A DNA stretch of 41,153 nucleotides from an uncultured Candidatus Saccharibacteria bacterium (GCA_964653475.1 CAZZFI010000001.1:1-41153); one strand, 5' to 3'; numbered from the stretch's first letter, positions 885 to 17,038 are shown. Numbers and translations: made by a program. The notes: generated by a model not told the origin, from the sequence alone.

Positions 885-1250
885 TCACATAACCATCAGT
901 TTCGGAAGAAAAATCATCGTAGCAATAATTACCGCAAATATCGCGGAGATCAAAACTGCCCCTGCTACGATATCCCTTGCATTTCTAGTAGCCTCATAAT
1001 CAAGTCCTAAGTCATCCCGCATTTTGTTACACACATCTTCCAATGCGGTATTTACTGTTTCTAGACTCATCACCAATGCAAAACACAGAATTACTGCGAA
1101 CCATTCTACTCTCTCGATTTTAAAATATATTCCTGCAAGACCTACAACGAGAACTGCGATAACATGCACTCTCATATTACGCTCTTTTAGAGCCAAGTTA
1201 ATTCCACGATATGCATGTGGGAAGCTTTTAAAAACTTTAGATATATCCAT
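885..1250 (-). CDS. dgkA: Diacylglycerol kinase / undecaprenol kinase family (DgkA)
   Basis: 121 aa with 3 TM helices. SLETVNTALEDVCN and RNARDIVAGAVL are typical of the prokaryotic DAGK family. Confidence 0.85.
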   Translation of the reverse strand: MDISKVFKSFPHAYRGINLALKERNMRVHVIAVLVVGLAGIYFKIERVEWFAVILCFALVMSLETVNTALEDVCNKMRDDLGLDYEATRNARDIVAGAVLISAIFAVIIATMIFLPKLMVM

Positions 1251-1526
1251 TAGTTAATAAATTCTAAAGATCAAATTATATCATCTATTACCTCAATATC
1301 TTCCAGATCTCCCACAAATCTTACGTCTACCATTCTCCCCTGTATGTCTACCAAGTGTACCAATTGCTACTCTTCGTTAATCATAAATTCTGTGTAAACA
1401 ATCAATAACAAATCATACCCATTTGAAGGAGAAACTGCAAAATATAAGGTTTTAACATAAAATAATTTCTATTTTTTATATTCACGCTAAGGGGAAGAAC
1501 TTTCAATTTTACTACTTCACACCAAG

Positions 1527-3956: not shown

Positions 3957-4634
3957 CTACTCTATCAAATGCTTTGTATATCCTAGCTTAACCAATTCCT
4001 GATAAGCACTCCACACATCATCAGGGATTTCCTGATAAATCTGAAAACCCTTCCCGGGATAAAGCTTAATTCTCTGCAGATCTCCAACCATAATATTTAT
4101 TATTACTTCACGTTCGACGACTTTCTCGATATAGTCTTCATACGAAATTGGTTCAGATGTAACCATAACTTTCACATCACTCTCTGGCCAAAAGTTCATA
4201 AAAGTTGCATAAGTGCGTCTTTCCATTGTCGGTTTATGGACAATTATCACACTCTTCGGAATCCGATCAGTTTCTTTAAGTATTTTGTATGAGAACAAAA
4301 CGTTCTCCCCACTGTTTGTAGACTTTGTTTCCAGTGTGATTTTGTCTCTCGGAATCCCGTTTTCCAAAGCTACTTCGAGATACTTCTCTGTCTCCGAATT
4401 CGTCCCCCAATCTGTCTTCTGAATATTGTCTTTGTCCGGAATCGAATGATTGTGCGCCCCTCCCCCCGAGATCAAAAGCTTCGGCGCATAATCTTCCCTA
4501 AGTAATTTCGCAGCATAAACAGGCACGGACAAGTCCAGAGAGGTAAAGCACATTAAGATGTCTGCAGACTCCAGTTGGTGATGAAGATGATGATAATCCC
4601 AGAGAACTTTTGCTAACTCGTCAATTTGGTTCAT
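3957..4634 (-). CDS. DUF218 / YdcF-ElyC family protein
   Basis: ISGGGAH ... SETEKYLEVALENGIPRDKITLETKSTNSGENVLFS matches the DUF218 core (SGG ... sEa..m...l...Gvp...I..E..S.nT.eN). Confidence 0.75.
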   Translation of the reverse strand: MNQIDELAKVLWDYHHLHHQLESADILMCFTSLDLSVPVYAAKLLREDYAPKLLISGGGAHNHSIPDKDNIQKTDWGTNSETEKYLEVALENGIPRDKITLETKSTNSGENVLFSYKILKETDRIPKSVIIVHKPTMERRTYATFMNFWPESDVKVMVTSEPISYEDYIEKVVEREVIINIMVGDLQRIKLYPGKGFQIYQEIPDDVWSAYQELVKLGYTKHLIE

Positions 4635-4973: not shown

Positions 4974-5558
4974 CTAATCTATGAAGGGATTACTCTCCAT
5001 CTCGAAAAGAATTAGTGGGGTTTGATTATTAACTCGATCTTCGGTGATACTATATTTACCTACATAAAGTCCTGTAACGGTTCCAAAAAATGCTTTTTCG
5101 TAATCAAATCCCAGCTTTTCGGACACTGATTTAACTTCGTCTTCCGACTCACCTTCGATTTCTATAAATGGCTCGAGAAAAGGCCATTCGTCAATTGTGA
5201 TTTGCAAATTATTTAGTACCCAAAGTTCCCGTTTGCTTTCCTGGTATGCTTTTTTCTCACATCCGATTTTTTCGAGCAGATGACAAGCATCTTGAAAGTT
5301 ACTTACAGTTAGCTCTATCTCTTGCTGTTGTTCAATAGTTCCGTTTTCCGTGACAACCTTGAGTGACATAGTTATTTTATCTTGTTCATCTCTAACACGT
5401 AAGTATCCGTGGGGTACCTCATGCCCGGAAGGCAGCTCAAATGTGCAGCGTTTTTGTAGAAACTCTTTTTTAATCAGTTTCGCACCTGCGGATCTCAACC
5501 TATTGCGAACTTCCTCTTTGTTTATATTTGTGTATGTTGCTTCGTATTCTGTTTTCAT
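4974..5558 (-). CDS. CYTH-domain protein (CyaB/ThTPase-like triphosphate tunnel enzyme)
   Basis: N-terminal TEYEATY (ExExK-type strand, with K replaced by T), LRVRDE, and alternating acidic/basic beta strands. Length 194 aa. Confidence 0.5.
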   Translation of the reverse strand: MKTEYEATYTNINKEEVRNRLRSAGAKLIKKEFLQKRCTFELPSGHEVPHGYLRVRDEQDKITMSLKVVTENGTIEQQQEIELTVSNFQDACHLLEKIGCEKKAYQESKRELWVLNNLQITIDEWPFLEPFIEIEGESEDEVKSVSEKLGFDYEKAFFGTVTGLYVGKYSITEDRVNNQTPLILFEMESNPFID

Positions 5559-14053: not shown

Positions 14054-14500
14054 TGGTGGAGATGGCGGGAATCGAACCCGCGTCCAAACCTGACCAAAAA
14101 CTACCCCTACAAGTTTAGTTAATTTGGTTTGAAACAGTTTGATCAAAATTAACAAAAGCCAAACTGCTTTGATTTATAAATTCTTGGAGTTTAAGCATAA
14201 ATCAAACTTAAACTTTGCACCTCGACTATATTGCTCCTCCTATTTCTCGCCGAGAATAGAAAATAGGAGAAGGTTGCCCTTTTAGTTAGGCAACAGCAAG
14301 GTTGACAGCTGGTTCTACACCAAAGAATGCAGCCACTTTCGCAGATGCACTATCAAACATTGCTATAAATTTGTTTTTGACGCTTATTGTCAAATCTCTG
14401 ATTGCTCAGAGCCATCATGTCTTTATTTAACGAAGCGACACAATGAACACATCGACTTGCGGCAATTCTCGGTTCCGATTTGTCGAAGCCGATCATCCCC
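14054..14500 (-). ncRNA. ssrA: tmRNA (SsrA)
   Basis: 5' GGGGATGATCGGCTTCGAC and 3' GGACGCGGGTTCGATTCCCGCCATCTCCACCA. The acceptor stem has the G3:U pair. The internal tag frame ends ...CCA GCT GTC AAC CTT GCT GTT GCC TAA (..PAVNLAVA-stop). Confidence 0.9.
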
Positions 14501-14620: not shown

Positions 14621-16051
14621 TTAACCTCTAAATACCCTCTGCCCTTCAGGAGTGTCTTCTACTACCACAGCGAATTCTTCTTTAAGCTTTTCGCGTAGTT
14701 GATCTGACTCATTCCAGTTACCAAGCTTTCTAGCAAGCTCTCTTTTATCTAACAGATCTCGGATTTCGTCTGTTAGTTCAATTTCATCATCTTTTATGAG
14801 ATCTAGTCCCAAAACCCTATCAAAATCAGTGATTGTAGCGATTTTAATATCATCATGCAGATCAGATTTTATAAGCTCCCAAAGTAAAGCTAATGCTTCA
14901 GGGATGTTGAAATCACTTTCTAATGCTTTCTTGAATCTTTGCTTGTATTCTTCAGACACTGTGCCGAATTTCTGCGAGTTCAAAAGTTTGATTTGTTTTT
15001 TTAATCGGTTGTAAGCTTGTTGTGAAGCTGAAAGTGCCTCCCAGGTAAAGTTTTGTTTTGAGCGATAATGTGCGTTAAGGTAAAAATATCTGAGTGCTAG
15101 GGGTTCGTAACCGTTATCTATTATATCGTCCAAGACAAAAGCAGTTCCCTCTGACTTGCTCATTTTTTTCCCGTCAAATAGAAGATGTTCGTTGTGTAGC
15201 CAGTAGTTGACAAACTTCGTTCCATTTGCAGACTCACTCTGTGCGATTTCGTTTGTATGGTGTATCGAGATATGTTCAACTCCTCCCATGTGCATATCGA
15301 TTGTAGCTCCTAAGATATCCCCAGCCATCGCACTACACTCGATATGCCATCCAGGAATTCCTTCCCCGTTTTCAACTTCCTTAGATTGAAATGGTGAAGG
15401 CCAATACTGCAAGGCGTTTTTGTGTGCACCAGTTTTGAAAAACCACAGAGCGAAGTCCTGTGGATTTTTTTTGTCTGGATCGACAACCTCTCCTTTCCCT
15501 AGTCCTGTTTTGTTTTTTTCGAGATTTTGTCCACTAAGTTTTGTGTAGTGGGAGAATCTTTCAACTTCAAAATAGATGGCTTTGTCTGTCGAATAAGCAA
15601 AACCTTTTTCAAGCAGAGTATTGATCATGCTTTGCATCTGCTCGATATACTGGCTGGCAACTGGTTTGTGGTCAGGAGGTAAAATATTTATAGCCTTTGT
15701 GTCTTTTTCGAAGATATCGATATATTTTTTCGCAATCTTTTGAGGATCGAGGTTCTCTCGCTTTGAAGCTTTTTCCATCCGATCTTCTCCCAGATCTGCA
15801 TCACCTAAATTATCTCCCGTAAGATGTCCAACATCTGTGTAGTTTCGAACGAAATTCACTTCATAACCGAGGTAAAGCAAACTTCTGCGAATTAAATCGG
15901 CCATAGTCATACCACGAAGATTTCCGATCTGCTGAACCCAATATACAGTAGGCCCGCAGTGATAAAACCTGACTTTATTGTCTTCGATAGGTTTAAAATC
16001 CTCAAGCTTTCTTGATATTGTGTTATAGACTTTTAGCATTGTGCTTATCAA
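14621..16051 (-). CDS. cysS: Cysteine--tRNA ligase
   Basis: CGPTVY..QIGNLR (HIGH region), NYTDVGHL...GEDRM, GWHIECSAM, HHTNEIAQSE, KMSKSEG. 476 aa including the anticodon-binding tail. Confidence 0.95.
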   Translation of the reverse strand: MISTMLKVYNTISRKLEDFKPIEDNKVRFYHCGPTVYWVQQIGNLRGMTMADLIRRSLLYLGYEVNFVRNYTDVGHLTGDNLGDADLGEDRMEKASKRENLDPQKIAKKYIDIFEKDTKAINILPPDHKPVASQYIEQMQSMINTLLEKGFAYSTDKAIYFEVERFSHYTKLSGQNLEKNKTGLGKGEVVDPDKKNPQDFALWFFKTGAHKNALQYWPSPFQSKEVENGEGIPGWHIECSAMAGDILGATIDMHMGGVEHISIHHTNEIAQSESANGTKFVNYWLHNEHLLFDGKKMSKSEGTAFVLDDIIDNGYEPLALRYFYLNAHYRSKQNFTWEALSASQQAYNRLKKQIKLLNSQKFGTVSEEYKQRFKKALESDFNIPEALALLWELIKSDLHDDIKIATITDFDRVLGLDLIKDDEIELTDEIRDLLDKRELARKLGNWNESDQLREKLKEEFAVVVEDTPEGQRVFRG

Positions 16052-16055
16052 TAAA

Positions 16056-16850
16056 TTAAAATTCGTCAGTAAAGTATTCGTTGTTCATCAAAAGCATCAA
16101 AAGCCACATTGGCTTTCCGTGAGTTAGGTTTTGTGACTTGTGTTTTTTAGCTGCTTTGTATTTAAGTAATATTTCTTTTCCTAAAGGAAGTCTGTATTTA
16201 GGTTCAGCTTGGTGCAGGTTTTTTCCATTCGCCATATGCACAGGCAATCGAATATTTTTCAGAACCGACTTTGGCAATGTTTTATACAAAACAACCGTGT
16301 CTTTTGTTTTTGTATTTGCTATGTTATGCATAATTTCGCTTACTACTATATGATCAGGATGTCCATACAACCCATCTTTTTCATACACTAATATAATATC
16401 CGGATTAAATTTCTCCACTTCAAAGAGCAGTTTTTTTTCTAATTCGTCGTATTCTTCTTCTAGTGCACCATCCGAGAACTTCCATATCTCGCATTGTTGT
16501 AGTTTAAGTTCTTTGGTAGCCATTTTGTATTCTTCTTCGCGAATTCGCGCAAGTTTTGCGGGTTTCACTTTTAATAATTCATCACCCCTCTCACCACAAG
16601 TAACACAGATATGTTTTAGAGAGATGCTTTCGTCGTTTGCGAACTTTGCTAAAAAACCTCCAGAAAGCATCGTTTCATCATCTGGGTGAGGGTCGACTGC
16701 AAGAATTCTGTACTTTCTCTTTTTACCGAGTAGATTTTCTAACTTCAAAACAGGCAGGCGATATTCATTCAGATAAATATTAAATGCTAAATATATCCCG
16801 ATAAGTAAGAAAATTATTCCGGTTATGATTTTGAAAATCACTGTCATCAC
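16056..16850 (-). CDS. PIG-L/LmbE family N-acetylglucosaminyl deacetylase with an N-terminal TM anchor
   Basis: ILAVDPHPDDETMLSGG and GLYGHPDHIVV zinc-site motifs. There are 4 nt between its stop and the cysS start. Confidence 0.85.
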   Translation of the reverse strand: MMTVIFKIITGIIFLLIGIYLAFNIYLNEYRLPVLKLENLLGKKRKYRILAVDPHPDDETMLSGGFLAKFANDESISLKHICVTCGERGDELLKVKPAKLARIREEEYKMATKELKLQQCEIWKFSDGALEEEYDELEKKLLFEVEKFNPDIILVYEKDGLYGHPDHIVVSEIMHNIANTKTKDTVVLYKTLPKSVLKNIRLPVHMANGKNLHQAEPKYRLPLGKEILLKYKAAKKHKSQNLTHGKPMWLLMLLMNNEYFTDEF

Positions 16851-16855
16851 CTTAA

Positions 16856-16903
16856 TTAAAAATAAAAAGACCCTGTTCTTGTCTAAATGACAAACACAGG
16901 GCC
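16856..16903 (-). terminator. Intrinsic terminator of the T-box leader
   Basis: 15-nt arms with 13 pairs, 5-nt loop, T5AT5 tail, ending a few nt before the PIG-L RBS. Confidence 0.8.
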
Positions 16904-17020
16904 TCTTTGATTAGGCGGTTCCACCCATGATTTCGCTTTGTGGAGTATTTAATTTTGGCAATTTCGACGGTTTCTGTCCGCTTCAGTTACCGATTCTCAG
17001 TAAACTCGGTTTTCTGTTAT
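16856..17020 (-). promoter_or_regulatory. T-box riboswitch leader (tRNA-sensing antiterminator/terminator) of the PIG-L-cysS operon
   Basis: On the minus strand, an extended -10 TGCTATAAT (TATAAT at 17031-17026) precedes the leader. The T-box sequence is AATCATGGGTGGAACCGCC (consensus GGGUGGNACCGCG). Antiterminator: A1 CAUGGG (16929-16924) with CCUGUG (16900-16895), 7-nt bulge UGGAACC (16923-16917), A2 GCC/GGC. It competes with the terminator GGCCCTGTGTTTGTC-ATTTA-GACAAGAACAGGGTC followed by TTTTTATTTTT. AAGGTG then precedes the ATG. Confidence 0.85.
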
Positions 17021-17038
17021 TTCTGATTATAGCAAATT

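Follow-up and report, generated by a model that had tools for sequence, protein, structure and literature searches.

A putative reduced T-box leader for tRNA-Cys upstream of a PIG-L deacetylase and cysS operon in a Patescibacteria genome

The locus and its operon

The window, that is, the whole stretch of 41,153 nucleotides that was analysed, comes from a genome whose closest named cysS loci are those of Candidatus Dojkabacteria and other Patescibacteria, in agreement with the initial annotation, which had described the genome as CPR-like. The locus comprises a comF-like phosphoribosyltransferase gene, an intergenic gap that carries the leader, and an operon of two genes on the same strand (Table 1). 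The comF-like gene ends 5 nt ahead of the predicted -10 box of the leader, and no terminator lies in between. The gene downstream of the leader had been named as cysS; cysS is indeed part of the operon, but as its second gene, the first being the gene of a PIG-L/LmbE-family deacetylase. In profile searches the PIG-L protein scores under the cut-offs of both BshB and MshB and is regarded as a generic member of its family. The leader and the PIG-L gene 3' of it are conserved in each of four sister genomes, G004-G007, that belong to the same genus; their cysteine--tRNA ligase (CysRS) is 73-77% identical to the window protein.

cysS encodes a true cysteine--tRNA ligase, the sole one in the genome. 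The product scores 393 bits with TIGR00435 (cut-off 340) and fails the MshC model (181 bits vs 485), and cysteine--tRNA ligase matches were found once per genome across 24 genomes. Two of the cysS matches, L034 (G005:C5:102586-104004) and L048 (G001:C12:1428-2816), each contain a single in-frame stop codon (one is TGA, the other TAG), which could be due to sequencing errors, frame breaks or recoding. The pairing of a PIG-L gene with cysS extends to at least one further genus. In Dojkabacteria HKST-UBA14 (G003), which belongs to another genus, a 35%-identical PIG-L gene is situated just upstream of cysS (L051/L131); the contig begins inside the U-tract-like sequence ATTTTATTTT, and a leader may therefore have been lost at the contig edge. 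We also note that the tmRNA gene directly downstream of cysS has a large insertion in the tag region relative to the Rfam model, and that the tag read by ARAGORN, VKNKFIAMFDSASAKVAAFFGVEPAVNLAVA, is unusually long with 31 residues.

Table 1. Features of the cysS locus in the window and of the four related leaders in the same genome (G000)
Feature	Position	Strand	Sequence or remark
comF-like phosphoribosyltransferase gene	17713-17039	-	upstream of leader
Intergenic gap	190 nt	-	comF-like gene to PIG-L gene
Predicted extended -10 box	17026-17034	-	TGCTATAAT; read from sequence
Leader RNA, predicted	~17018-16858	-	~160 nt
AG motif	17011-17015	-	AGAAA; putative counterpart of Stem I AG-bulge T-loop, consensus AGAGA
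Hairpin H1	16990-17009	-	CCGA-GUUUACUGAGAA-UCGG; putative distal Stem I hairpin
Hairpin H2	16968-16980	-	CGG-ACAGAAA-CCG; between H1 and specifier
Putative specifier (Cys)	16958-16960	-	UGC; in A/U-rich linker, pairs with GCA anticodon
Purine-rich linker	16931-16939	-	AAAGCGAAA; matches AGNG and A-rich flanks of Stem III
T-box sequence	16928-16914	-	AUGGGUGGAACCGCC; bulge UGGAACC 16923-16917
Antiterminator	16896-16928	-	A1, 7-nt bulge and A2
Helix A1	16928-16924 / 16900-16896	-	AUGGG with CCUGU
Helix A2	16916-16913 / 16904-16901	-	GCCU with AGGC
Intrinsic terminator	16858-16908	-	hairpin of ~19 pairs (16908 to ~16864), then UUUUUAUUUUU to 16858
Ribosome-binding site	16853-16846	-	AAGGUGAU; 3' of terminator tail
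PIG-L/LmbE-family deacetylase gene	16056-16850	-	operon gene 1; membrane-anchored; Pfam PF02585, E 7e-25
cysS	14621-16051	-	operon gene 2; 4 nt past PIG-L stop
tmRNA gene	14054-14500	-	131.7 bits; directly downstream of cysS
glyS leader	C73:~1170-1330	+	codon GGU, bulge UGGA, U73
aspS leader	C23:~5176-5350	+	codon GAC, bulge UGGC, G73
serS leader	C48:~4100-4330	+	codon UCC, bulge UGGC, G73
thrS leader	C9:15441-15338	-	codon ACC, bulge UGGA, U73

Antiterminator and terminator

T-box membership was defined by a sequence of about AANNAGGGUGGNACCGCG and a 7-nt bulge UGGNACC held between helices A1 and A2. The leader carries AUCAUGGGUGGAACCGCC, and the minimum-energy fold of 16931-16894 is exactly A1, the bulge UGGAACC and A2, with a free energy of -8.5 kcal/mol. 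The 5' strand of the intrinsic terminator reuses the 3' strands of A1 and A2 (overlap 16908-16896), and the two structures are mutually exclusive. The terminator folds with -25.2 kcal/mol and ends in a U5AU5 tail ahead of the ribosome-binding site. All of these parts (the T-box sequence and bulge, both helices, the shared strands, and the strong terminator with its T5AT5 tail) had been read in the initial annotation and were recovered at the same places of the minus strand. The A1 pairs are all kept in the five Cys leaders known from the genus, and in the terminator of the same leaders 94% of cells are paired, with one pair changing on both sides. This is also the part of the leader at which the alignment of the window to the Rfam T-box model RF00230 is convincing, with high posterior probability, and the only such part.

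The region 5' of the T-box sequence retains traces of Stem III. In the RF00230 alignment, ACAAAGCG and AAUCAUGGG flank the Stem III positions, and a single nucleotide replaces 19 model positions. Stem III is deleted in the same manner, with its conserved flanks kept, in the thrS leader as well as in the Cys leaders, and is retained in the Gly, Asp and Ser leaders. UCCAC (16944-16940) can pair with GUGGA of the T-box sequence as a possible anti-antiterminator; the register of this pairing shifts between genomes. The T-box sequence itself (16914-16928) can be read as a tiny frame, AUG GGU GGA ACC GCC UAA, without a ribosome-binding site, which is almost certainly meaningless.

Predicted promoter and putative 5' platform elements

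Transcription is predicted to start near 17019, ~7 nt past the extended -10 box. The motif TGnTATAAT is present in 5/5 Cys leaders of the genus and ends 7-10 nt ahead of the AG motif; of the 19 leaders tabulated, most have a likely -10 hexamer at a distance of 6-10 nt upstream of the AG motif, and for thrS this distance is 20 nt. The initial annotation had estimated a leader of ~160 nt from the predicted -10 box, with a Stem I that must be reduced, and its inference of a reduced Stem I is supported. The DNA 5' of the -10 box is part of a coding sequence in the window and an unrelated A/T-rich spacer in the sisters, and hence offers no conserved 5' strand. The 5' end of the RNA probably coincides with the AG motif that belongs to the distal Stem I hairpin, a reading that is made most likely by the nearness of the -10 box to the AG motif together with the unrelated upstream DNA. 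An RNA that begins there would have no 5' strand for the lower Stem I, the K-turn and the Specifier Loop, and neither a basal K-turn of Stem I nor an internal Specifier Loop was found in the window leader.

The elbow-binding platform of T-boxes is characterized by two T-loop consensus sequences, AGAGA and UGxRA (PMC7583486). AGNRA is situated directly 5' of H1 in 19/19 leaders tabulated, and UGxRA lies within the H1 loop in all 19; in the window, the loop motif UGAGA at 16999-16995 fits the second consensus. When related leaders of glyS and aspS are aligned to RF00230, the AG motif and H1 fall with high posterior probability on the Stem I positions of AG bulge, distal helix and distal loop. 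In the same alignments, the pairs of the lower Stem I are non-standard and 40 Stem II positions are deleted. H1 was also predicted independently by RNAalifold from 13 glyS/aspS leaders. We take H1 as the likely distal Stem I hairpin, which, together with the AG motif, may form the platform.

A second hairpin, H2, is found in 5/5 Cys leaders with the loop conserved as GACAG[AU]A, and three of its six pairs change on both sides. H2 is not present in the Gly, Asp and Thr leaders. As H2 sits 5' of the codon, it is not Stem II.

Specifier codon and tRNA match

One tRNA-Cys(GCA) was found in the genome by ARAGORN (C91:1145-1215), with acceptor stem GGUCACG/CGUGACC, discriminator U73 and no encoded CCA. 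U73 forms a Watson-Crick pair with the A of the UGGA bulge. This is the discriminator that the initial annotation had predicted for tRNA-Cys from the bulge A; its remark that tRNA-Gly has U73 as well is borne out in the window genome, where the same is true of tRNA-Thr. U73 is also found in the tRNA-Cys of five genomes of the same genus. The bulge reads UGGG in the four sister genomes with a Cys leader, so with their U73 the pairing is kept as G.U. Elsewhere, the bulge is UGGU before aspS in G015 (L012) and UGGG before glyS in G002 (L021), and these would wobble assuming G73 in tRNA-Asp and U73 in tRNA-Gly as in the window genome. Wobble at the variable bulge base seems to be tolerated in the lineage.

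The trinucleotide UGC occurs once only in the window's leader. It is invariant in 5/5 Cys leaders while its neighbours vary, with U or C before it and C, A or U after it; the base 3' of the window codon is C, in contrast to the usual purine. The same position is occupied by GGC or GGU in glyS leaders, GAC or GAU in aspS leaders, UCC in the serS leader and ACC in the thrS leader. The initial annotation had offered UGC hesitantly, in view of the C that follows it, along with GGU followed by A in AUCGGUAAC. The first candidate gains from its invariance between varying flanks; a tRNA-Cys with U73, by which the annotation had proposed to judge the T-box, is present in the genome. The second has to be given up: it is the 3' strand of H1, and the sister genomes carry CCGAUAAA and CCGGCAAC in its place. 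From this comparison, we read the specifier as UGC and not GGU-A.

Exposure of the codon is not predicted by RNAfold in the window, where its unpaired probability is 0.23, a low value that arises because GGUAA can pair with UUGCC. Over 19 leaders, codon accessibility shows no enrichment (0.58 vs 0.54 for the average position). The stem of GGUAA and UUGCC, which encloses H2 in the RNAfold minimum-energy structure, was rejected as a required element, since the codon would be hidden within it and its pairing is not preserved in G004 and G007. A small A.U hairpin with the codon in its loop is possible in the window, G005, G006 and several Gly and Asp leaders. As it is impossible in G007, the codon region is treated as weakly structured, and the codon would be presented without a Specifier Loop. 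Two further candidates were also discarded: a pseudoknot between GAUA of the H1 loop and UAUC after the codon, which is inconsistent across leaders, and a lower Stem I of 5' GUGAA with downstream UUCAC in Gly leaders, which is restricted to three near-identical genomes and absent elsewhere.

Covariance models and related leaders

RF00230 gives no match to the locus at its gathering score. A search by E-value over 501 nt returns 17.8 bits (threshold 93; E 0.09), so the Rfam check proposed in the initial annotation yielded a weak match and nothing at gathering. The Stem I part of this alignment runs into the promoter and the coding end of comF and was, for this reason, not used for Stem I. A covariance model of the class itself, R1, was constructed from 13 glyS/aspS leaders of the taxonomic family and includes no Cys leader. 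RNAalifold on these 13 sequences gives H1 and the bulged antiterminator, with compensatory changes at 9/13 pairs. R1 matches the window end to end at 17016-16894 with 37.4 bits (E 1.6e-5 for the window, 3.5e-4 for the genome), and every modelled pair in the match is standard. In the window genome, R1 has five matches, which are the leaders of glyS, aspS, cysS, thrS and serS, and nothing else. A weak R1 match inside comF (17212-17096, 19 bits) contains non-standard pairs and was taken as chance. Across the order, the R1 class is present in 23/24 genomes.

The leaders before glyS (C73), aspS (C23) and serS (C48), each with a terminator, were also found by a scan for the motif GGUGGNACC, and sub-threshold RF00230 matches precede other genes of the window genome in the genome search. 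None of the four additional leaders (glyS, aspS, serS and thrS) reaches the Rfam threshold, and the window genome holds at least five such leaders, with none reported at that threshold. In all four, the variable bulge base fits the discriminator of the cognate tRNA, as A with U73 for Gly and Thr and as C with G73 for Asp and Ser. The serS leader stands out by a 5' domain of greater length and complexity.

Covariation was another check suggested by the initial annotation, and two-sided changes are found both among the Cys leaders and in a set of 24 leaders. Among the five Cys leaders, the fraction of paired cells is 88% in the antiterminator structure and 92% in the terminator structure, and falls to 22-50% when the 3' partners are slid; two pairs of H1 and three of H2 change on both sides, and this Cys-specific covariation is thin because there are only five such leaders, three of them near-identical. 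In an alignment of 24 leaders to R1, paired cells make up 87%, and compensatory changes occur at all five stem pairs of H1 and at four antiterminator pairs, where A1 and A2 covary. The alignment (A3) was fitted to the model and thus favours the modelled pairs. The cells with two-sided changes number 67 vs a shuffled mean of 25, and the observed covariation score is reached by 0/500 shuffles, a count that is not a probability since the sequences are related to one another.

T-boxes across the phylum

The initial annotation had placed T-boxes mostly in Firmicutes, Actinobacteria and a few other phyla. That view does not describe this phylum, in which RF00230 matches with E <= 1e-5 are present in 48/151 sampled genomes, five of them above the Rfam threshold. 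In the taxonomic family of the window genome, 14/16 genomes contain RF00230 matches, none above threshold, the best with 89.3 bits vs 93. A T-box lies directly upstream of cysS in 1/80 other Patescibacteria loci (L110), so that the Cys leader cannot be regarded as a general feature of the phylum. Our literature search returned no publication on T-boxes in CPR, Patescibacteria or Dojkabacteria, and the main text of the TBDB paper does not mention candidate phyla.

Other reduced T-boxes were seen in other Patescibacteria families, where the layouts of L151, L155, L156 and L150 were surveyed. The thrS leaders L151 and L155 have ACU-A in the loop of a hairpin of 4-5 bp. Some glyS leaders of other Patescibacteria seem to have GGC in a hairpin loop. 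L161, from a different family, has a platform-first layout as in the window leader.

Comparison with known T-boxes

The T-box is a thoroughly known mechanism. The window leader resembles the glycine-type glyQS/glyQ T-boxes of Bacillus subtilis, Geobacillus and Oceanobacillus (RF00230) in its transcriptional terminator/antiterminator switch, in its T-box sequence, whose UGGN bulge is complementary to the NCCA end of the tRNA, in the distal Stem I motifs (AG motif and UGxRA loop), and in having neither Stem II nor a Stem IIA/B pseudoknot. In contrast, glyQS has a full Stem I with K-turn, an internal Specifier Loop (S-turn, codon, purine) and Stem III, whereas the window leader has no 5' strand for the lower Stem I, carries the putative codon in a linker that follows the hairpins on their 3' side, and is devoid of Stem III. 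For Gly leaders, the strong GGC:GCC pairing has been given as the reason why Stem II is lost (PMC7583486). The Cys, Asp, Thr and Ser leaders of the window genome are also without Stem II.

Truncation of Stem I has also been described for the actinobacterial ileS T-boxes, which have a short or 'ultrashort' Stem I and still decode their cognate tRNA (Sherwood et al. 2015, via PMC7583486). These retain the Specifier Loop, K-turn and Stem II, have lost the distal platform and act at translation. The window leader is the inverse, in that the distal platform motifs are kept, the proximal Stem I and Stem II are lost, and an intrinsic terminator is present. It differs from the thrS leaders L151 and L155 as well, where the codon is in a hairpin loop, since in the class of the window the putative platform hairpin comes first and the codon lies downstream, outside any conserved stem.

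Taken as read above, the architecture is reduced, with no lower Stem I, K-turn, Specifier Loop, Stem II or Stem III, and with H2 as an extra element. What appears particular here is a putative platform hairpin that is kept while the proximal Stem I is lost, with the codon outside a conserved stem, in a transcriptional switch for non-glycine tRNAs. To our knowledge, no T-box has been proven to work without Specifier Loop, K-turn and Stem III.

Proposed mechanism and alternative interpretations

The leader is very probably a transcription-attenuating T-box riboswitch specific for tRNA-Cys, which would control the PIG-L deacetylase gene and cysS. In the proposed mechanism, transcription would start ~7 nt past the extended -10 box, and AGAAA and H1 with its UGAGA loop, which match the two T-loop sequences of the tRNA-elbow platform at the tip of Stem I, would emerge first. 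Past H2, UGC in the A/U-rich linker would pair with the GCA anticodon. If the tRNA-Cys is uncharged, its 3' UCCA would pair with UGGA of the bulge and stabilise the weak antiterminator of A1 and A2, and RNA polymerase would read through into the operon. If the tRNA-Cys is charged, the far stronger terminator would form, and transcription would stop at the U-tract before the PIG-L gene and cysS. As the leader keeps only part of the stem that grips the tRNA, the standard T-box model RF00230 misses it.

The leader might instead be a degenerate relic that has ceased to sense tRNA, in which the terminator ends the comF-like gene or acts constitutively and the operon is expressed by leaky readthrough. 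The very low Rfam score, the missing lower Stem I, Stem II and Stem III, the C after the codon and the predicted partial pairing of the codon would all fit such a relic. A relic would hardly be expected, however, to preserve TGnTATAAT between comF and the leader in 5/5 genomes, even with unrelated DNA upstream, or to keep the T-box sequence, the bulge, UGC and both helices at a CysRS identity of only 70-77%; pairing-preserving changes occur, and the same reduced layout stands before five synthetase genes, each with its cognate codon. We therefore consider loss of function improbable. Similarly improbable, and slightly more so, is a T-box of normal length that takes its lower Stem I from sequence upstream of the predicted promoter, with the true start inside or before comF. 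The start site is predicted from sequence, and comF, on the same strand with its end 5 nt before the -10 box and no terminator between, could supply such a transcript. Against this, no conserved 5' strand exists upstream of the -10 box, where the window has coding sequence and the sisters have A/T-rich spacers that are unrelated; a lower Stem I forced by RF00230 on the related leaders gives non-standard pairs; and the spacing of 6-10 nt between a likely -10 hexamer and the AG motif, seen in most of the 19 leaders (20 nt for thrS), points to a start at the AG motif.

Specificity for tRNA-Gly or another U73 tRNA (e.g. Thr), with GGU of AUCGGUAAC as the codon, can be set aside with still greater assurance and is very remote. 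It draws on the U73 of both tRNA-Gly and tRNA-Thr in this genome and on the presence of GGU followed by A, yet that GGU belongs to the 3' strand of H1 and is replaced in the sisters, which carry CCGAUAAA and CCGGCAAC. Separate glyS and thrS leaders have their own GGU and ACC at the aligned place, and the gene downstream of the present leader is the only cysS of the genome.

The reading of the leader as a tRNA-Cys T-box bears on a broader and more tentative proposal. The Dojkabacteria-type class may constitute a natural, working transcriptional T-box with a decoding domain made of a 5'-terminal double-T-loop hairpin and a codon in an unstructured A/U-rich linker, with no K-turn or Specifier Loop/S-turn, no Stem II even where the tRNA is not that of glycine (Cys, Asp, Thr, Ser), and, in the Cys and Thr members, no Stem III; we put the chance of this at somewhat under even.

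Implications

Since the T-box mechanism is well known and common in the phylum, the added value of one more leader is incremental. Two points raised in the T-box literature are whether function is possible without the K-turn and for what reason non-glycine T-boxes depend on Stem II (PMC7583486), and the class described here bears on both. If the proposal for the class is true, co-transcriptional tRNA sensing would require neither the proximal Stem I nor Stem III, and the class would represent a T-box close to the minimum, at about 120 nt. A natural leader of ~120-160 nt would also lend itself to structural and kinetic studies as a minimal system. The placement of a PIG-L deacetylase under a cysteine T-box would link an uncharacterised gene to cysteine supply. 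For the organisms themselves, the leaders suggest that ultra-small CPR genomes may control their synthetases by tRNA sensing, in forms that RF00230 at threshold misses.
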